64,000 bases of DNA from Deltaproteobacteria bacterium (lineage in GTDB: Bacteria > Desulfobacterota > Binatia > UBA9968), in the NCBI GenBank assembly GCA_016180805.1, contig JACPAM010000109.1, positions 734 to 64,733 of the forward strand. Direction: 5' to 3'. Shown here one piece after another: positions 1-57,318 of the stretch. The translations under genes were made by a program, and so were the position numbers. The notes below the pieces were generated by a model. The model did not search any database and was not told the origin of the DNA. It saw only the letters and a list, made by a program, of their open reading frames with translations. How positions within the stretch are numbered: position 1 is the stretch's first letter; every line of letters starts with the position of its first letter.

Positions 1-115
1 ACCCGCCGGAAACCGCCGGCGGAAACTTTGATCTTGCGAGGCAACTCAAATAAGACGGTTTCCGGTCGAGTTAATCCTGTGGTTAGGCCCCTGCATCACG
101 GTCATTCACCCACTT

Positions 116-760
116 TCAAACATTGAAGCCAGGGTGCGTATCGAAGTTGCTGTTGATGATGTTGTTCGCACGTTGCGTAGCCTGAGTTCTCATGGCAACC
201 GAGGTACTCGTTCCGGCGGCAGCGAACCACGCGAGCCAGCACACCTCCCACCGCCACGCGCCGTTGTAGCCCCAGCTCGAGTCGTTGTTGCCGCTGTCGT
301 GACCCTTGCCGTCAGCGTGCCGAGCTTCGTGAATCAATGTCCCAGCGCGCATGCTCACCCCCCAACCGTAGAAGTAAGTCAGGTAGAGCTCTGTGCGGTT
401 GTCGATGATCGGACCCCACCAGGTGTAGGCAATGAACGCGCCGCTCCCGCAGCGGGCATCGAGCTCATCAATTGCATTGCGGGCGAATCGGCAGCCCCAC
501 TCCAGGATGTTGGAGCTATAAGACTCACTTGGAAAGTTGGGAGAAGAGTAGGTCAGGCACCAAATCCCAGAAAGGGTCCGGCAGAGCGGGCGGGTGTTGT
601 CGCATACCTGGTCGTACCCGAATCCATCGTCCCAATCGCCTTTGTCGAAGTCGAAAGCTTCCCATGCCCAATCAATAAACGGTTGCCAGCAGATTCGTGG
701 AGCGTACAGGTTATCACCTGAAGTGTCGAGATTAGGGACAGAAGCAGTACATGTAGCCAT
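116..760 (-). CDS. hypothetical Trp-rich protein with HExxH motif (LIHEARH); no signal peptide evident
   Basis: 214-aa ORF immediately downstream of the 764..1477 ORF (3-bp gap), suggesting one operon. HEARH zinc-metalloprotease-like motif and many Trp/Gly/Asp residues. No family recognised. Confidence 0.4.
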   Translation of the reverse strand: MATCTASVPNLDTSGDNLYAPRICWQPFIDWAWEAFDFDKGDWDDGFGYDQVCDNTRPLCRTLSGIWCLTYSSPNFPSESYSSNILEWGCRFARNAIDELDARCGSGAFIAYTWWGPIIDNRTELYLTYFYGWGVSMRAGTLIHEARHADGKGHDSGNNDSSWGYNGAWRWEVCWLAWFAAAGTSTSVAMRTQATQRANNIINSNFDTHPGFNV

Positions 761-763
761 AGG

Positions 764-1477
764 TCAACCCTCCTGTTCGCCTTGACATTTCGTGTTGGGA
801 GACGTGGAAAGAGACGCCCTTTTGGGAGGGGCGAATCCATGCGCGGCAGCATCGCCACGCTCGGGCTCGGCATGGAGCTCGTCGGCTCGCGCGCGGCGAA
901 TATCGAGAATCCAGTGATCGTCCTTCGGCAAGATTTCCGCAACCTTGTCTTTGAGCCCGAGGGCAGTGGCAGCCTTTACCGCTTCTATCAGGATCGACCG
1001 GGCCGGAGGTTTGGAAACGACCTTCAGTACATGCTCTGCGACGTTCGGATGTCGGGTCGCAATTCGCTGGAGCGCTTCCACTGCCATGGTCCGTACCAGG
1101 ATCTCACCATCGCGCGGCCCCTCGCAGCCTCGGTCCTTCTGCTCTTCAGGCAGCCGCTCTATGGAGCAATCAACCAGAAAGGCAGCGGCTGTCGGATTGC
1201 CCGTGTCGCCCAACATGTACAATAGACTCCAGCGAAGTAAAACATCCGCCGACGGAACGCGCCGGATCAGTCCGACGAGGGTCTCCACTGCGTCCTTCTT
1301 GTCTCGAAGCAACTCGCCGACGCGTTTGTAGGCGAGCTCCCCCTCTTTGTCCGACGTGTTCAGGTAGCGCACGCCCTGGCCGATCAGCCACGCAGTCGCT
1401 GACAGATCGAATGGACGATCGCCTGAAATCACTTCAAGACTGTCACCGCGGTGCCTCGGTTGTTCTTGATGTGCCAT
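764..1477 (-). CDS. hypothetical helical-repeat (HEAT-like) protein
   Basis: 237-aa ORF, tightly linked upstream partner of 116..760. No recognisable catalytic motifs. Confidence 0.4.
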   Translation of the reverse strand: MAHQEQPRHRGDSLEVISGDRPFDLSATAWLIGQGVRYLNTSDKEGELAYKRVGELLRDKKDAVETLVGLIRRVPSADVLLRWSLLYMLGDTGNPTAAAFLVDCSIERLPEEQKDRGCEGPRDGEILVRTMAVEALQRIATRHPNVAEHVLKVVSKPPARSILIEAVKAATALGLKDKVAEILPKDDHWILDIRRARADELHAEPERGDAAAHGFAPPKRASLSTSPNTKCQGEQEG

Positions 1478-1657
1478 CTCATTACTCCTTTCTTATCGCC
1501 TAACTATTAAGTGAGCTGTGAATTAGCCGGCAAGGAAACTGCGGGCTATCTCGCCGGACCCACGACCTCGATTTGTTAAAAATCATCGGCATGATTCAAC
1601 CGTTACTAAGCCCCCACAAAATTGTCTCGCCCCGTCATAGCCAGCGGGTCTCGCTGG

Positions 1658-1972
1658 CTATGCGGCTATCAGCCCGCAGGCTATGCAGCCTCCCAACTCA
1701 ATCAGAGCCGATCCGCAGGGCTTAAAACCCCGCGGCCTCCTCGATTCAAAACGTGGGTGTAAATCATGGTTGGTGGACAAGTCTATGTCCTTCACCCTGA
1801 GGCGAAGGCATTCCATCAGGCGAAGACCAGCCCCATAGAGGAGCATCGCCATAATCCAGTCCAGCCCTTGAAGCTGGCCGAGAATAGAGCGGACCTCCTC
1901 GTGTGTCAACACCACTGGTAGCCGACGGGCTCTTTTAGCCCCGATCCGAAATAAATTCTGGCCCCTACATGA
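1658..1972 (-). pseudogene. degenerate integron-integrase-like (IntI-family) tyrosine recombinase remnant
   Basis: Minus-strand frame translates [58 protein letters not shown], closely matching the [13 protein letters not shown]....LLYGTGMR..E.L.LRVKDLD block of IntI1. An in-frame TGA (1973-1975) truncates the N-terminal side at the border of a palindromic element. The sequence after VKDIDL shows no integrase similarity. Confidence 0.6.
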
Positions 1973-1980
1973 TCAACTTC

Positions 1981-2014
1981 CCTCTCCCGTCGCGGGAGAG
2001 GGCGAGGGTGAGGG
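1981..2014 (+). repeat. REP-like GC-rich palindromic element (CCTCTCCCG-tcg-CGGGAGAGG followed by GCGAGGGTGAGGG), copy 1
   Basis: Perfect 9-bp inverted repeat seen directly. Near-identical element at 55411-55463. Abuts the stop that truncates the integrase remnant. Confidence 0.6.
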
Positions 2015-2196
2015 CAAATTCCATGCGCACCACCACGAACGACTCCCTGTACGTAGCCAACGTTTTTGAACAAGACCTCGTGGTACAGAAACAAAAGAGG
2101 CCGGATCTCACTTACAGGAACTCGAGAAAGAAGGTTTCTTCGCCGAAATGGCGAAAAAATATCCGACCAAGGGATAAGCCCTCCCAGTGATAGTGG

Positions 2197-4338
2197 CTAG
2201 CCCAACCCCGCAGAACCTGCGCCGCGTTGTGTCCGGGTTTCGCTGACGTCAAAGAGGATGCCGCAGCCGGGACAAATGGACTTGCGGAGCACGAAGTCCG
2301 GGCTGTCTCCCTGCCAGCGCAGGGCGAGCCACGGGCCTGCTTCCGACAGAGGAGCATGGTGGATTAAGATTTCGCTGCATATGCGATGGCAGGATCGACA
2401 GCGAAGCACGCGGCGGCCGTCCAGGCTGATCCGCTCCAGGTATTCGCCAATCCGCTCCGCTTTGTCCCCGCCGTCGCTTCCCGGCGGGAGCGGAGCCGCG
2501 GAGGATTGGCTGCCCGCCAGGCGGTCGTGAATCATCGTTTCCCGCAAGCGCTTCGTCGCTTCGGCATCGACCTCGAGATTGTCCTGAAGCACCACCCCGT
2601 AGCGCCGGCGCGCCGACTCGGGGCTGACCCGACCGTTTCGCACATCGTCCTGGACCAGCCGCGTGTCCCGCCGCAGCGGGTCGCCGTAGCCGCCACCTCC
2701 CGGAGAGTAAAAGACGAAGACATCATCAGGGCCCAGAATCCCGTCCGACTTGCTGAGAAGGTGTTCCACCGTGCCGCCAAAGTCCTCATAGCTTTCCGCC
2801 TTTTGGCCAGAGGAAAGGATCTCGCGGATCCGACTCCCCCGGATGACTGTGGCCTGGGAGCCTGACCCCGGGTAGCCCCCGTCAATCCCGGCTGCATTGG
2901 ACTGGTTGGTCCCCGCCGTGTTGAAGTTTTTGAAGATGAGCCGCTCAGTGCCGTAGGCTGTAAACGCGGTGATCAGCGAGAGGCCTCCGCGGAAGGCGCC
3001 TGGTCCTCCGGAGTCGATGAGCTGTTTGCGGAATACGTGGAGGATGGGCAGCTTCCATTCCTGGCTCTCCACATTGGCCATGAAGGAGAGAAACGAGGTG
3101 ACCATCCCCGCGTTGTCAAAACCATCGGCGAAAGAGCGAGCCCCGGCCCCTCCACCCCGGTGATCGGAGAGAAGCGCCCCCACCCTTTTGCCGCGTCGGT
3201 TGGTGGCGAAGACGTTGGTGCCGTTGCTCGACACCGTCCAGGAGGGACAGACGCGGTCGCGGTATTTTTCTGAGGCGGACAGCATCTTGGCGAGGACCCG
3301 CATAGAGGCCACCGTAGCCAGCCAGCGAAACCCCAGGGTACAGATGCTCACCGCGGCCGGATAGCGGGCGTTCATCACGGTGCCCTCAGGGGCCTCCACA
3401 TGGACGACCCGCTTGAGGCCGCTGTTCCAGTCGATTTCGCCGTTACAGATAAACGTATAGATGGGTACGGCCGTACCGGCATAGCAGGCGTGGTAGGTTG
3501 AATTGACGCCTCCCTCCACCTGGGCGTCGCTGCCGGTGTAGTCAAAAAAAAGCTCCTCCCCGCGCTTCTCCAAGCGCAGGAAGACCCGGTGAAGCTCGGT
3601 ACACCCGCGCTTGTCCCCGTCCATGTAAACTTCCGTCTCCCAGGCGCCGTCAGGGATCTCGGCGAAGCGCTGGCGGAGCTTCTCCTCGGTGTAATCCACG
3701 GAGCGCTCCATGACTTCCAGGACCGTCTCGACCCCCTTTTCGCGCAAGAGCTCTGTGAGGCGGTTCTTGACCACGTGTAACGCTCCCACTTGAGCCCTGA
3801 GGTCAAGCGCGACCGTATCGGGGAGCCTTGAGTTTCGCATGAAGGTGTACTCTACGTCGCGCTGTAGCCGCCCATTGTCCACGACCTTCAGAAAGTAGAG
3901 AGGAGGCTCCTGGTAAATATTCACGGCGTTGATGCAGAAGCTCCCCTCATCAATTCCACCCACGTCGGCGTGGTGCAGGACATTGCCCACCCACATGACA
4001 AGCTCCCCTTCATAAAAAAGAGGGCTCGCCACGACGAGATCGTTCTGGTGCAGCGCTCCCAGATAGGGGTCATTCGTTAGGTAGGCATCGCCGTCCTCAA
4101 ACTCCTTGGCCATGGAGATGATGCTCTTGATAGTGGTGTCTATGGTGGTCACGTGAACCAGCGAGCCGGGCCCGGGAATGACCAAGTCCCCGTGCCGGGT
4201 GAACAGACCCGTGTTGAAGTCGTTGCCCTCGACGACGATCGGGGAGGCGGAAACGGTGCGGATCGTAACTGCCTGCTCGTCGTTAATTTGCCAGAGCCGG
4301 TGCTTAATGACCTCAAAGGTGATGGGATCTAGCTGCAA
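2197..4338 (-). CDS. hyuB: hydantoinase B / 5-oxoprolinase family protein (HyuB / acetone-carboxylase alpha-like), Cys-rich C-terminus
   Basis: 713 aa with a family-typical length and sequence profile, and a C-terminal CxxC...CxxC cluster. Directly downstream of the hydantoinase A gene (11-bp gap). Confidence 0.8.
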   Translation of the reverse strand: MQLDPITFEVIKHRLWQINDEQAVTIRTVSASPIVVEGNDFNTGLFTRHGDLVIPGPGSLVHVTTIDTTIKSIISMAKEFEDGDAYLTNDPYLGALHQNDLVVASPLFYEGELVMWVGNVLHHADVGGIDEGSFCINAVNIYQEPPLYFLKVVDNGRLQRDVEYTFMRNSRLPDTVALDLRAQVGALHVVKNRLTELLREKGVETVLEVMERSVDYTEEKLRQRFAEIPDGAWETEVYMDGDKRGCTELHRVFLRLEKRGEELFFDYTGSDAQVEGGVNSTYHACYAGTAVPIYTFICNGEIDWNSGLKRVVHVEAPEGTVMNARYPAAVSICTLGFRWLATVASMRVLAKMLSASEKYRDRVCPSWTVSSNGTNVFATNRRGKRVGALLSDHRGGGAGARSFADGFDNAGMVTSFLSFMANVESQEWKLPILHVFRKQLIDSGGPGAFRGGLSLITAFTAYGTERLIFKNFNTAGTNQSNAAGIDGGYPGSGSQATVIRGSRIREILSSGQKAESYEDFGGTVEHLLSKSDGILGPDDVFVFYSPGGGGYGDPLRRDTRLVQDDVRNGRVSPESARRRYGVVLQDNLEVDAEATKRLRETMIHDRLAGSQSSAAPLPPGSDGGDKAERIGEYLERISLDGRRVLRCRSCHRICSEILIHHAPLSEAGPWLALRWQGDSPDFVLRKSICPGCGILFDVSETRTQRGAGSAGLG

Positions 4339-18732: not shown

Positions 18733-18888
18733 CTCGCCCCCTCGACCGGCACACCTTCCCTTCGAAGCCCGAGGGGGACGAGGAGGAAGGCCGCGGACGT
18801 CCGATTACAGACGGTACGACTCATGGCACGAACGCATCGGCCGCGGCCTGATGGCTCGGCCCCCGAGGAGCTTTCGAGGGCATCATCG
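18733..18888 (+). repeat. structured intergenic repeat family, copy 1 (short variant)
   Basis: Shares CCCTCGAC..GAAGCCCGAGGGGGA, GAGGAGGAAGGCCGC, GGACGTCCGATTACAGACGGTACGACTCATGGCACGAAC..ATCGGCCGC and a CCCCCGAGGAGCTTTCGAGGG terminus with the other copies. Confidence 0.7.
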
Positions 18889-23669: not shown

Positions 23670-23695
23670 CGAACATAGCTTTGCCTTCTGTCGCT

Positions 23696-23852
23696 AAGCT
23701 CCCTCGGGGAGCGCGCTCTCCGCTGCGGCCGATGGGTTGTCCTCGCTTCGCTCAGAATTTCAGATTGCAGATCTCAGATCTGAGATTTGAAATTTGCGAT
23801 TTGCAATCCCGAAGGGCTTGTCCGCAGCCTCGCTCGCGCTCCCCTCGGTCGC
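23696..23852 (-). repeat. structured intergenic repeat family, copy 2 (reverse orientation, with AT-rich palindromic internal module GATTGCAGATCTCAGATCTGAGATTTGAAATTTGCGATTTGCAATC)
   Basis: Contains the reverse complement of the GCGACCGAGGGGAGCGCGAGCGAGGCTGCGG and ..CATCGGCCGCAGC.GAGAGCGCGCTCCCCGAGGGAGC modules. Lies between the convergent liv and ssu-like operons. Confidence 0.65.
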
Positions 23853-27399: not shown

Positions 27400-27560
27400 G
27401 TTCCCTCGAAAGCTCCTCGGGGGCCCGATCCGCCTCAGGCGGACGCGCACGTGCTTATCCGCGACCGAGGGGAGCGCGAGCGAGGCTGCGGACGTCCGAT
27501 TACAGACGGCACGACTCATGGCACGAACCCATCGGCCGCAGCCGAGAGCCCTTCCTATGC
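27400..27560 (+). repeat. structured intergenic repeat family, copy 3
   Basis: CCCTCGAAAGCTCCTCGGGGGCC..CGCCTCAGGCGG..GCGACCGAGGGGAGCGCGAGCGAGGCTGCGGACGTCCGATTACAGACGGCACGACTCATGGCACGAACCCATCGGCCGCAGCCGAGAG. Confidence 0.7.
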
Positions 27561-29555: not shown

Positions 29556-29700
29556 AAAACTCTCCGGCATTCCTTCGAAAGCTCCTCGGGGCCGAGCCGC
29601 CTCAGGCGACCGAGCAGAGGGCTTCGGGACTCCCTTCGCTCCACGGGACTGCGCGACGCGACCCCAGTTTGGTCTATTTCGTCATTTAGTCTTTGCATCG
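29556..29700 (+). repeat. structured intergenic repeat family, copy 4 (partial/divergent), inside the grd cluster
   Basis: Shares CTTCGAAAGCTCCTCGGGGCC..GCCGCCTCAGGCG with copy 3. Inserted between grdE and grdC. Confidence 0.55.
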
Positions 29701-38460: not shown

Positions 38461-38569
38461 ATGATTACATCCGTCTAACGATCAAGCTCAGAGGCGCGCC
38501 GTTCACGGCGCGTGCGCTGCAGCGCCGGGTTGGGGCACGTGACGGTCATAGTGCAGCACGCATGATCAG

Positions 38570-39198: not shown

Positions 39199-39460
39199 GC
39201 TAATCAAGTTCGGGCACCAATGGTCCACTCCGGATCCGAAGAGAGAGTGCATGTTCAGCGCAGCCCAACCAGTGAGTCTACTGACCGGCATAGTACGGGT
39301 CCCTGAAACAAGAATTCGAAGCGGATTCTGTTGCCTTTGCAACCAGTTGTCAAGCTTTTTGTCGAAACCACTCCACCCCCACTCTTTGCCCGCACGTTGG
39401 GTCTTGCAGTACAGGCCAGATCGGATTAACGTCTGGGAAATTGGCGAGGAGGATACATCT

Positions 39461-47778: not shown

Positions 47779-47789
47779 CTCAGCGGTCC

Positions 47790-47897
47790 GCGACCGAGGG
47801 GAGCGCAAGCGAGGCTGCGGACGTCCGATCACAGACGATGCGACTCATGGCACGAACCTATCGGCCGCAACCGAGAGGGCGCTTCCCGAGGGAGCTT
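47790..47897 (+). repeat. structured intergenic repeat family, copy 5 (core only)
   Basis: GCGACCGAGGGGAGCGCAAGCGAGGCTGCGGACGTCCGATCACAGACGATGCGACTCATGGCACGAACCTATCGGCCGCAACCGAGAGGGCGCTTCCCGAGGGAGCTT. Begins 12 nt after the ligase stop. Confidence 0.7.
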
Positions 47898-52569: not shown

Positions 52570-52745
52570 GCCTTCCGGCCGCAGCCGATAGACTAGGCTC
52601 CCTCGGGAAGCCCGCTCTCGGCTTCGTGCCATGAGTCGTACCGTCTGTAATCGGACGTCCGCAGCCTCGCTCGCGCTCCCCTCGGTCGCGAGCAAGCATG
52701 TCTGCGTCCTTCAGTCTCGCCCCCTTCGGAAGCTGTTGTCGTATC
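52570..52745 (-). repeat. structured intergenic repeat family, copy 6 (reverse orientation)
   Basis: Contains the reverse complement of the GCGACCGAGGGGAGCGCGAGCGAGGCTGCGGACGTCCGATTACAGACGGTACGACTCATGGCACGAA core. Confidence 0.7.
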
Positions 52746-55410: not shown

Positions 55411-55463
55411 CTCTCACCCTCTCCCTACCCTCTCCCTGTGAGGGAGAGGGCAAGGGTGAGGGT
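55411..55463 (+). repeat. REP-like GC-rich palindromic element, copy 2 (CCCTCTCCC-tgtg-AGGGAGAGGG + CAAGGGTGAGGG), immediately 3-prime of UbiD paralog 3
   Basis: Same hairpin and GGGTGAGGG tail as the 1981-2014 element, in the same orientation. Abuts the TAA stop of the 55463..56911 gene. Confidence 0.6.
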
Positions 55464-56911
55464 TAGCACCAGTACGTGGTCCGATCGATCGGGATGTGCT
55501 GCAATATCTCCCCGGGGATATAGTCCTCCAGCTTGATCCTCTCCATCGCGTCATCCGGGCACTTGGAGACCGGCGAGAACGGCCGGTCCAGAGGCCGGGT
55601 CGCATCGATGATCATTCCTGAGGTCTTGATCTCATCGACCAACGATGGATCCAAAAAGTTGCCCCGAAACAAGGGCTGGAGAACCGAGACCTGCTGGTGG
55701 GGCTGCACCCGAGTGGCCAACGCCCAGAGGATGTCCGTCGGGTTGTAGACATCGATGTCGTCGTCAAAAACGAAAACGTTCTTGGTGTGATCGAACGTCA
55801 GCGCTGCGGCCGCGGCCCGCCCGGGGTCCCCCTCGGACATCTTCTTCATCGAGATGAAAACGTTGTAGTGGGCGTGGCGTCCCATCTTGCACACCGCCGT
55901 GACTCCCGGAATAGCCTCACGGCAGCGGCGCAGGTAGGCCCCCTCGCGCGGCAGGTCCATCCACGGCTTGTCCCCCTCCGGCGTGATGACCGATTGGTAC
56001 ATCCCGCCCCTGCGGTAATTGATAGCCCGAACTTCATAATGGACGCACGTGGTATAGCGCTGGGGGCCAAGATAGCCCGGCGCCTCACCGAAAGGCCCCT
56101 CGACGATACGCTTCCCTGGAATCAAGGCACCCTCGATGACGATCTCGGCGTCCGCGGGGATGAGCAGATCCTCACCCCAGGTCTCGGAGGGAGTCAGCCG
56201 AAGCGGCTCCTGGAGATAACCGCCGATGATGTCGAACTCGCTGACTTCGAAAGGGCCGCTGTAGCAAGCGCCCATGTGATACGCCGGATGGTGGCCCAGG
56301 ACAGTGGCCACCGGACATTCCAGGTTGTTGTCTTCATGATCGCGGAAGATCTTCCACAAGTGGCGCGGGGAGGCATAGAGCGCGGTCTTGTTCTTCGACT
56401 TCACCTCCATCCGGTGATAGGAGCAGTTATAGATACCGCTCTTCCGATCCCGCGTAATCGTCGACAGGACGATGTAGGGGCCGCCATCCATGTAGTGGTG
56501 GCGCATGATCGGAAGCTCGTAGAGATCGACTTCGGGCCCCTTTTTGACAACCTCTTTGACCGGCGCGCTCTTCTTGTCCACGATAACAGGCGGAATGCGG
56601 TGCTCCTCCCGCTCCAGACAGACCTCGGCCATCTGGGTCCGGTTCATTTCTCGCGGCACCCCCAAGGCGATCTGGGTCTTCCGCTGGGAGATCTCGCAGT
56701 TCATGACGAGCTTGAACTCGCTGCTGACCCTTCCGTGCAGGTTGCGAGGCCGGTCGAAGATCAATATCGGAAACTTTTTCATCGCGCCCAGATGCTTGAT
56801 TACGGCCGTGACGTCGTACTGGGCGGGATCTACTTCTTTGGTGACGTGGACCACCTCGTTGGGAATCTCTCGCTGGCATTCCTCTAAAAACGTCCTCAGG
56901 CTCTTCGGCAT
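55463..56911 (-). CDS. UbiD-family (prFMN-dependent) decarboxylase, paralog 3
   Basis: 482 aa, with a UbiD profile. Confidence 0.85.
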   Translation of the reverse strand: MPKSLRTFLEECQREIPNEVVHVTKEVDPAQYDVTAVIKHLGAMKKFPILIFDRPRNLHGRVSSEFKLVMNCEISQRKTQIALGVPREMNRTQMAEVCLEREEHRIPPVIVDKKSAPVKEVVKKGPEVDLYELPIMRHHYMDGGPYIVLSTITRDRKSGIYNCSYHRMEVKSKNKTALYASPRHLWKIFRDHEDNNLECPVATVLGHHPAYHMGACYSGPFEVSEFDIIGGYLQEPLRLTPSETWGEDLLIPADAEIVIEGALIPGKRIVEGPFGEAPGYLGPQRYTTCVHYEVRAINYRRGGMYQSVITPEGDKPWMDLPREGAYLRRCREAIPGVTAVCKMGRHAHYNVFISMKKMSEGDPGRAAAAALTFDHTKNVFVFDDDIDVYNPTDILWALATRVQPHQQVSVLQPLFRGNFLDPSLVDEIKTSGMIIDATRPLDRPFSPVSKCPDDAMERIKLEDYIPGEILQHIPIDRTTYWC

Positions 56912-57039: not shown

Positions 57040-57318
57040 CTCGCCGCCTCAGGTGGATTGCCCCCTCGACAGGCACGTTTCCACTTCGAAGCTCGAGGGG
57101 GACCAGGAGGAAGGCCGCAGTCTAGCTTGCCCGCGACCGAGGGGAGTGCGAGCGAGGCTGCGGACGTCCGATTACAAACGGCACGAATCATGGCATGAAC
57201 CCATCGGCCGCAGCCGAGAGCGCGCTCCCCGAGGGAGCTTCCTGACGGGGACAGGCACGCAAGCGAGCCAGTCCCCTTGCCGCGGCCTTCTTCCTCGTCC
57301 CCCGAGGAGCTTTCATAG
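57040..57318 (+). repeat. structured intergenic repeat family, copy 7 (longest, composite: contains all modules)
   Basis: CCCCCTCGA..TCGAGGGGG hairpin, GGAGGAAGGCCGC paired 160 nt downstream with GCGGCCTTCTTCCTC, the central core GCGACCGAGGGGAGTGCGAGCGAGGCTGCGGACGTCCGATTACAAACGGCACGAATCATGGCATGAACCCATCGGCCGCAGCCGAGAG, and the terminus CCCCCGAGGAGCTTTC. Confidence 0.7.

Follow-up and report, generated by a model that had tools for sequence, protein, structure and literature searches.

Positions 1-2106 (minus strand) of a 64,000-nt stretch of contig JACPAM010000109.1 (positions 734 to 64,733 of the forward strand; assembly GCA_016180805.1, a Deltaproteobacteria bacterium placed in Binatia), hereafter called the window, are likely to be the head of a degenerate chromosomal integron. 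Its layout would be of the atypical co-oriented kind, in which the integrase gene intI is transcribed towards the attI site and the cassettes, and its dead integrase gene would have been hit by an insertion bearing a BoxC-type repeat. A first-pass annotation of the same sequence had suggested an ancient integrase or integron in decay, and this was borne out by the IntI identity of the gene remnant, the attI region, the GTTAGGC core, and the putative cassette and degenerate attC downstream. Both components are of known kinds, namely a decaying integron and a known repeat type, and some novelty lies in the bounded BoxC-type insertion, the wide phyletic spread of the repeat and the polymorphic deletion in intI. 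The locus would thus be one more sedentary chromosomal integron caught decaying, in a poorly studied lineage, in which the attI region and the first cassette have survived longer than the integrase.

By three-frame translation of 1600-2260, IntI-like text was read on the minus strand as three pieces of an intI pseudogene: an upstream piece (2035-2106, IRPLLFLYHEVLFKNVGYVQGVVR, approximately residues 106-130 of the intact relative L006), which translates from 2106 to 2035 as the IntI-type LLFLYHEVLFKNVGYVQGVVR and lies on the far side of the repeat hairpin; a middle piece (1775-1939) containing the first catalytic Arg codon; and a C-terminal piece (1702-1770) containing the catalytic-Tyr codon and the original stop codon (TGA, 1702-1704). 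When the IntI of L006 was used as a tblastn query, three collinear matches were obtained in the window (residues 106-130 at 2106-2035, E = 7e-9; residues 128-185 at 1945-1775, 82% identity, E = 3e-31; residues 332-353 at 1770-1705, 91% identity, E = 9e-11), and overall identity to the nearest database relatives was 60-66%. The first-pass annotation had described about 60 residues of IntI-type sequence (...LRVKDIDL; minus-strand ORF (open reading frame) 1658-1915) truncated at the hairpin. The type was correct but the size was not, approximately 115 IntI residues surviving in two reading frames with the C-terminus included. The TGA said to close the IntI frame was indeed found, upstream, as tca on the plus strand at 1973-1975. 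The truncation itself had to be abandoned, as IntI homology resumes at 2106-2035 and the hairpin lies within a 95-nt insertion that is clean relative to two homologues.

In profile searches the joined pieces scored 102.8 bits with the integron-integrase model TIGR02249 versus 33.3 with XerC and 27.9 with XerD, and the better Xer fit that could have spoken against IntI was therefore not seen; TIGR02249 positions 71-146 were covered once the upstream and middle pieces were joined, and the middle piece alone gave 74.8 bits versus 32 for XerC. The top solved structure was Vibrio IntI4/VchIntIA (PDB 2a3v), to which both the middle piece (residues 98-153) and the C-terminal piece (residues 281-320) aligned and which led the Xer proteins by ten orders of magnitude in E-value in the PDB comparison. 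The relatives nearest to the fragment, at 63-82% identity, are complete IntI that include the IntI-specific domain and lie beside attC arrays. L006 is readable as a near full-length intI with one in-frame stop, scored 459.5 bits across the whole TIGR02249 model and contains the IntI-specific segment (...ERKYPSAGKEWGWQWVFP...). The tyrosine-recombinase domain PF00589 was just reached in the window (27.6-28.7 bits versus a gathering score of 27.1), only the N-terminal domain edge surviving. On these sequence comparisons, the fragment is IntI-type and not XerC/D. Catalytic codons are left for the first Arg (GAGLRLMEC) and for Tyr (IYTHV), in different frames, and the full catalytic set (Arg, Lys, His-x-x-Arg, His/Trp and Tyr) was not found in one open frame in the remnant. 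In L006 (725-4064), this closest near-full-length intI with the in-frame TGA overlaps the end of a co-directional gene for a family-B DNA polymerase, which is not usually met beside an integron integrase.

The gene was broken at several points. No IntI signal was obtained N-terminal of residue ~106 by tblastn with the L006 query, and ~105 N-terminal codons have been lost. A terminator-like hairpin (2135-2159), located 40 nt past the stop codon of hyuB (hydantoinase-B), abuts the relic there; GRIFFRHFGEETFFLEFL (2130-2185) was considered as a decayed IntI N-terminus and rejected, since tblastn was silent in that region and the sequence is the terminator-like hairpin after hyuB. An insertion of 95 nt (1940-2034, plus strand), seen as a clean gap in DNA alignments with L006 and L005, sits between codons for VVR and AKR and shifts the frame by 2. 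Alignment with L006 also gave an internal deletion of ~142-146 codons (~0.43 kb) between KDID and (V)STTMIYTHV, whose junction, accompanied by a 1-nt frameshift, lies at 1769-1777 (minus strand) and shows GAC microhomology; this deletion took Lys, His-x-x-Arg, His/Trp and the IntI-specific domain. The pseudogene thus bears two frameshifts, and no single-base change restores a gene, so that an intact gene hidden by a one-base error, the possibility left by the first-pass annotation, did not emerge. As judged from its sequence, the integrase gene is a non-functional pseudogene. The hairpin element is one of at least four lesions, the function-destroying events being the 5' truncation and the ~0.43-kb deletion, and the earlier view that decay followed truncation by the palindromic element, which is an internal 95-nt insertion, was not supported.

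The Logan contig L002 is 99.66% identical to the window over 1-1775 and diverges from it exactly at the deletion junction, beyond which it encodes the IntI sequence expected immediately upstream of the deletion's 3' junction. The ~0.43-kb deletion therefore appears to be absent from this 99.7%-identical sister contig and, since L002 retains the pre-junction intI sequence, to be recent. Nearly all differences between L002 and the window, approximately 10 substitutions, are packed into 45 nt beside the junction (L002 1-60 versus 1735-1777), and this cluster could have come from recombination with another allele or from error-prone repair. With the large deletion polymorphic between 99.7%-identical populations, the recent loss could be followed in those metagenomes.

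The 95-nt insertion carries a C-block, a complementary G-block and a second G-block, which form the motif described earlier as BoxC and PIT and later as TM-ECO (Holder et al. 2015, PMC4666352). This first copy of the motif (1980-2014, plus strand) reads CCCTCTCCC-GTCGC-GGGAGAGGG-CGA-GGGTGAGGG, a 10-bp hairpin followed by a third G-block. A second occurrence of the insertion was found in L048, a metagenome-assembled genome (MAG) also labelled Deltaproteobacteria, where 3087-3186 equals window 1935-2034 at 97% identity over 100 nt; there the unit lies downstream of a vapBC pair in otherwise dissimilar sequence. On the right, the shared unit stops at 2034, precisely where the intI alignment had placed the insertion boundary, and on the left it reaches 5 nt (TTAGC) into sequence aligned as intI. 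In addition, two independent short-read Logan contigs, L001 and L003, break off at 1964. This is exactly 30 nt past the start of the unit, the place where we presume that an assembly with k = 31 would end at a repeat starting at 1935, and such breaks at copy 1 hint at additional copies in the community. The 95-100-nt unit would then have arrived as a discrete mobile or copied element, and its insertion may have been neutral, in a gene already dying or dispensable. TTAGC directly precedes the 100-nt unit in both sequences (window 1935-1939, L048 3087-3091) and also directly follows the second motif copy of the window (55463-55467); its position beside motif copies could be a coincidence or a target preference. 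AAATTC flanking the core was considered as a 6-bp target duplication and discarded, since chance alone would yield a repeat of this kind in 100 nt.

A causal role of the repeat, in which its insertion killed a working intI and its triplex-prone structure then provoked nearby deletions, is unlikely in our estimation. It draws on the finding that, among E. coli strains, small deletions and rearrangements are more frequent at TM-ECO loci than at intergenic control sites (PMC4666352), on the distance of only 170-260 nt between the motif copy and the recent deletion junction, and on the clustering of ~10 substitutions in 45 nt beside that junction. Yet the deletion junction is located away from the repeat and has its own GAC microhomology, and the relics P0001, P0038 and P0082 are similarly deleted with no TM motif in their fetched loci. 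These three are other metagenomic IntI-like ORFs of 144-157 aa (P0001 in L005, P0038 in L125-L127, P0082 in L128), in each of which an internal deletion joined the N-terminal half to the C-terminal motif at a differing junction. A "mini-IntI" family made of them was rejected, because the junctions differ and show microhomology and the contexts of P0038 and P0082 are ordinary and unrelated; they are probably independent relics enriched by the use of a deleted query.

Returning to the integron itself, two layouts were met among the IntI relatives: the canonical one, with attC sites upstream on the opposite strand, and one with attC sites downstream on the strand of intI, to which the closest relatives belong. 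In the window, an attI-type region (1505-1701, minus strand) extends from the intI stop to the crossover site and aligns with the sequence downstream of intact intI in L133, L006, L137, L134 and L136. It ends in the attI core and cassette junction G|TTAGGC (1498-1504, minus strand; consensus GTTRRRY). The window and L133 share the 17-mer TCACTTAATAGTTAGGC without a mismatch, ~200-235 nt past the intI stop, and the two sequences diverge immediately after it; co-oriented relatives generally have a core of the form ...AATAGTTAGGC at 200-240 nt past the stop. Recognised by homology to these relatives, an attI site with a GTTRRRY core is taken to adjoin intI.

Inside the attI-type region, CATAGCC/GATAGCC repeats were found, together with a perfect 11-bp palindrome with a 5-nt spacer at 1636-1662, 40 nt past the real intI stop, and an alternative arm at 1673-1685. 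The palindrome had been noticed in the first-pass annotation and is perfect as described; its assignment to a degenerate coding tail was not maintained, since it lies in the attI-type region past the true stop. The block reads CATAGCC-TGCGGGCT-GATAGCC-G-CATAGCC-AGCG-agacc-CGCTGGCTATG in the window and GATACCC-TGCGAGCT-GATATCT-G-GATACAC-TGCC-aaaat-GGCAGGGTATC in the aligned part of L006, with the palindrome kept in different letters. We infer that the palindrome may be a protein-binding or structural element of the attI region, as part of an attI-proximal repeat array that probably provides binding sites for the integrase or a regulator. A TTGACA box is kept in the attI regions of L133, L006, L137, L134 and L136, and its window counterpart is degenerate (GAGACAATTTT). 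In those five relatives the box, as (A)TTGACAA, stands ~90-110 nt upstream of the attI core, with A/T-rich hexamers 17-18 nt beyond it, and is a candidate for the cassette promoter of the co-oriented integron clade. A search for promoter-like sites in window 1-2600 called none in the attI region, the sole one being at 1881-1909 in the intI remnant.

Beyond the core lies a putative gene cassette, cassette 1 (1-1503, minus strand), which continues past the left edge of the window. It contains a HEAT-repeat-like ORF of 237 aa (764-1477, minus strand), only faintly HEAT-like, and a second ORF of 214 aa (116-760, minus strand) that belongs to no Pfam family and whose HEARH motif resembles that of a metalloprotease. 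On the minus strand the module begins at AATAG|TTAGGC, and approximately 25 nt past the second ORF an R'' site GCCTAAC (82-88) perfectly complements the 5' GTTAGGC of the cassette. This R'' would belong to an attC (1-88, minus strand) that is cut at the window edge and is complete in L001 (1877-1981), a contig 100% identical to window 1-1964. When contigs with a 90%-plus variant of the HEAT-repeat protein (L129-L132) were compared, window 93-1502 was 93-95% identical to them with differing flanks on both sides, giving breakpoints at 1502 and 93. In L129, a vapBC pair, itself a cassette with an attC, precedes the module instead of the intI relic; this PIN-type vapBC cassette (L129 3-694, 689-748) has GCT instead of GTT in the R' of its attC.

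In order to score attC sites, a covariance model (R1) was built from attC sites in arrays at 80 loci with full-length IntI relatives. Covariation supported the attC structure (88% of cells paired, 54 cells changed on both sides, 0 of 500 shuffles as high). In 76 kb searched unfiltered, R1 scored highest (23.1 bits, E = 0.0036) on a palindrome that follows vapC and borders the module in L129, L131 and L132. The attC-like site sought after the first-pass annotation was found at the left edge of the window as a probable degenerate attC, which scored 20.2 bits (E = 0.017) in L001 1877-1981, spanning window 88-1 and a further 17 nt outside it; the best other match in the window scored 16.8 bits. 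A strict motif scan (RYYYAAC...GTTRRRY, at least 6/7 complementary) returned nothing near the remnant, being too strict and the site straddling the window edge. Taken together, the two-gene module would be a cassette ending in a decayed attC. Isolated weak attC-like matches at 38473-38535 and 39263-39402 (both minus strand; 16.8 bits with E = 0.11, and one strict-scan match) are probably due to chance. A different attC-like palindrome of 57 nt (GCGTAAC...GTTCAAG), unscored by R1, follows the module in L130 (1409-1465).

A number of observations count against a decaying integron carrying a mobile insertion. On the integrase side, the remnant did not reach the curated TIGR02249 cut-off of 265 bits, because two thirds of the protein is gone, and the IntI-specific domain (profile intI_Cterm of IntegronFinder) was not found in the remnant; this region falls inside the ~0.43-kb deletion, and the missing domain is a matter of decay, not of ancestry. 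Palindromes after the intI stop occur in only some of the relatives. As for attC, the training sites of R1 were picked by a fold-based heuristic, which is partly circular; the E-values of the model are rough by design; the score of the window site is modest; its R' is a degenerate GATAAGC, with GAT replacing the invariant GTT; the module shared with L130-L132 breaks off there ~4 nt short of R'' and gives way to a different attC-like palindrome that R1 left unscored, an arrangement that integrase exchange at R' does not predict; and a single cassette is visible, where the window ends. With respect to the insertion, neither terminal inverted repeats nor a target duplication were seen by eye at the ends of 1935-2034, only two copies of the 100-nt unit are known, a 21-mer from the insertion flank gave 0 matches in the metagenomes of the JGI (Joint Genome Institute), and six-frame peptides of the insertion, searched against a protein database for other copies, gave nothing significant. 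Triplex, G-quadruplex (G4) and hairpin formation at the repeat sites is predicted only.

Some of these points feed the explanation that only an isolated integrase relic is present with no integron, that GTTAGGC and GCCTAAC are chance 7-mers, and that the HEAT module is an ordinary island of accessory genes, with breakpoints produced by other recombination. We regard this as quite improbable. The weak attC match with its rough calibration, the R' without GTT, the empty strict scan near the remnant, and the change of sequence before R'' rather than at R' in L130-type copies are all in its favour; on the other hand, the GTTAGGC-ending 17-mer is that of the nearest intact relative at an equal distance from the stop and the remaining spacer aligns as well, the 5' breakpoint of the module falls on the GTTAGGC site and in L129 abuts the top-scoring attC match of the entire search, and the two 7-mers complement each other perfectly, as they must in a cassette. 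We keep the decaying co-oriented integron as the preferred reading.

The repeat in the insertion recurs once in the window, at 55428-55462 (plus strand), in a 62-nt spacer between the stop codon of a ubiD-like gene and a 48-aa zinc-ribbon ORF. The near-identical element that the first-pass annotation had placed after the UbiD stop is therefore real (2 matches versus 0.00 expected in a pattern search of the 64 kb). Its description as REP-like (repetitive extragenic palindromic) caught the right genre, and the element is specifically the published BoxC/PIT/TM-ECO motif: both copies fit the TM-ECO pattern CCCTCNCCC-N3-6-GGGNGAGGG-N3-GGGNGAGGG with zero mismatches, and their stems are identical to those of E. 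coli K-12 copies, with a different second loop (CGA or CAA). Copy 1, inside the pseudogene, was also found as an inverted repeat and by DNA folding, and its G-arm is G3N3G3N3G3N3G3. Copy 2 is intergenic, has flanks differing from those of copy 1, and is extended by extra upstream C-blocks into an ~20-bp hairpin (fold -21.9 kcal/mol, z = -5.5). The copies share the block arrangement of the E. coli triplex-formers, which would bear on triplex or G4 formation as single-stranded DNA, and the fold predicts the Watson-Crick hairpin only.

It is very doubtful that the hairpin is instead a functional transcription terminator or a REP element mobilised by a REP-associated tyrosine transposase. Copy 2 directly follows a stop codon with an ~20-bp GC-rich stem, as a terminator might. 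However, neither copy is followed by a T-run, copy 1 was not among the sites called by the terminator scan, copy 2, apparently within an operon, precedes a co-oriented ORF by 62 nt, and both copies match BoxC/TM-ECO block for block. To our knowledge, the window hairpin has none of the features of REP elements. An earlier study, cited by Holder et al., also found PIT elements to be without promoter or terminator activity in E. coli (PMC4666352). The isolated TM-ECO strand of E. coli copies forms a triplex in vitro, and no stable structure was detected in vivo (PMC4666352). At the ubiD site the repeat would act at most as a DNA or mRNA hairpin, and it would do nothing for the integron; the 451 kb searched around 80 IntI relatives contained no TM motif, and therefore the repeat is not an integron component.

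The distribution of the motif was surveyed by a scan across phyla, with one genome per species and the variant of the window as the pattern. Stems CCCTCTCCC/GGGAGAGGG/GGGTGAGGG with a CRA loop were present at more than 118 loci among the matches listed (L007-L124), versus a chance expectation of ~1e-4 matches or fewer as estimated from pattern length and collection size. The listed loci span Nitrospirota, Binatia, Chloroflexota, Omnitrophota, Myxococcota, Planctomycetota, Verrucomicrobiota, Elusimicrobia, WOR-3 and several proteobacterial classes. Among 124 motif copies from many phyla, no flanking sequence beyond the core was shared, which led to the rejection of one longer element common to all. 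In the Nitrospirota MAG JBBITU01 (L033, L042, L045, L070, L088, L107 and L112), the same core stands in the middle of an ~165-nt repeat with ~17-bp terminal inverted repeats (AGAGTCTGTTTATAAA...TTTATAAACAGACTCT) and a second small hairpin; its eight near-identical copies look like a miniature inverted-repeat transposable element (MITE) carrying the motif.

Since the 1990s, we know of no function or means of spread for BoxC/PIT/TM-ECO. We put forward tentatively, as a proposal that we consider rather unlikely, that the core could be the conserved payload of lineage-specific non-autonomous mobile elements spread over many phyla, and that the insertion in the dead intI could be a rare filled site with matching empty sites. 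If this were true, the filled site would fix the ends of one such element (~95-100 nt, 3' of TTAGC, no duplication) and give a first handle on how these long-unexplained repeats move. The motif here lies in a datable, bounded 95-nt insertion, which, with the JBBITU01 repeat and the wide spread, provides leads rather than proofs for cargo of small mobile elements.

The remaining two explanations can be treated briefly. An assembly chimera joined at the repeat is extremely unlikely: independent short-read contigs do break inside the unit, but IntI homology continues in register across the insertion (from residue ~130 to ~131), with strand and order unchanged, as would not be expected of a random join. 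An origin of the fragment from XerC/XerD or a phage-type tyrosine recombinase is scarcely credible, as generic PF00589 alone being just reached and the missing IntI-specific domain are set against integron-integrase models ahead of Xer models by ~70 bits, IntI4/VchIntIA as the best PDB match, and nearest relatives that are full IntI beside attC arrays.

Apart from these elements, a dispersed intergenic repeat of ~110 nt (CGCGACCGAGGGGAGCGCGAGCGAGGCTGCGGACGTCCGATTACAGACGG...CCATCGGCCGCAGCCGAGAGCGCGCTCCCCGAGGGAGCTT) was present in 6-7 copies in the 64 kb with 81-95% identity, one of them interrupted by an insertion (18736-18873, 23694-23852, 27441-27555, 47787-47897, 52620-52712 and 57060-57240, also 29567-29663). 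It occurs in a related MAG as well (L048 310-428) and is without an Rfam match. No Rfam family was matched in 1-3000 at E ≤ 1, nor anywhere in the window at the gathering score, and no tRNA genes were found in the window, so that a tRNA-linked island is not indicated.

Compared with known systems, the locus resembles IntI (TIGR02249; VchIntIA, PDB 2a3v) in its IntI-type surviving pieces and in the canonical GTTAGGC and GCCTAAC cores. A co-oriented integron layout is documented for Treponema denticola (PMC3607928), and the window resembles the Treponema integrons in having attI and a putative cassette 3' of intI on the same strand, as in its closest relatives; it differs in that its intI is dead (5' truncation, 95-nt insertion, ~0.43-kb deletion and frameshifts) and in that it comes from an uncultured MAG labelled Deltaproteobacteria instead of from a spirochaete. 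In the IntegronFinder scheme, it is similar to In0 (integron integrase without attC sites) or to CALIN (cluster of attC sites lacking an integron integrase) with a nearby intI pseudogene, as an intI pseudogene stands beside attC-type sites; intI pseudogenes were near 15 of 279 CALIN elements (Cury et al. 2016, PMC4889954). In contrast to these, the attI region of the window is unusually well preserved relative to the gene.

As for the repeat, it shares with TM-ECO (PMC4666352) the exact pattern fit, stems identical to the E. coli type B copies and, for copy 2, an intergenic position, and it differs in the second loop (CGA or CAA, not TTA or CCG), in a host far from Enterobacteria (the published count covered 262 proteobacterial genomes, PMC4666352), and in that copy 1 lies in a pseudogene, within a 95-100-nt unit recurring elsewhere. 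The E. coli TM-ECO study reported no link to mobile elements (PMC4666352). The same G-arm has been described as HPGQ, a G-quadruplex-hairpin-duplex switch (Kaplan et al. 2016, PMC5100583), and the G-arm of the window is likewise a G3N3 quadruplex motif. Finally, the unit differs from MITEs in having neither terminal inverted repeats nor a target-site duplication and in being known from two copies, whereas it resembles them as a discrete short insertion that is filled here, empty in homologues, and present as a near-identical copy at an unrelated locus.

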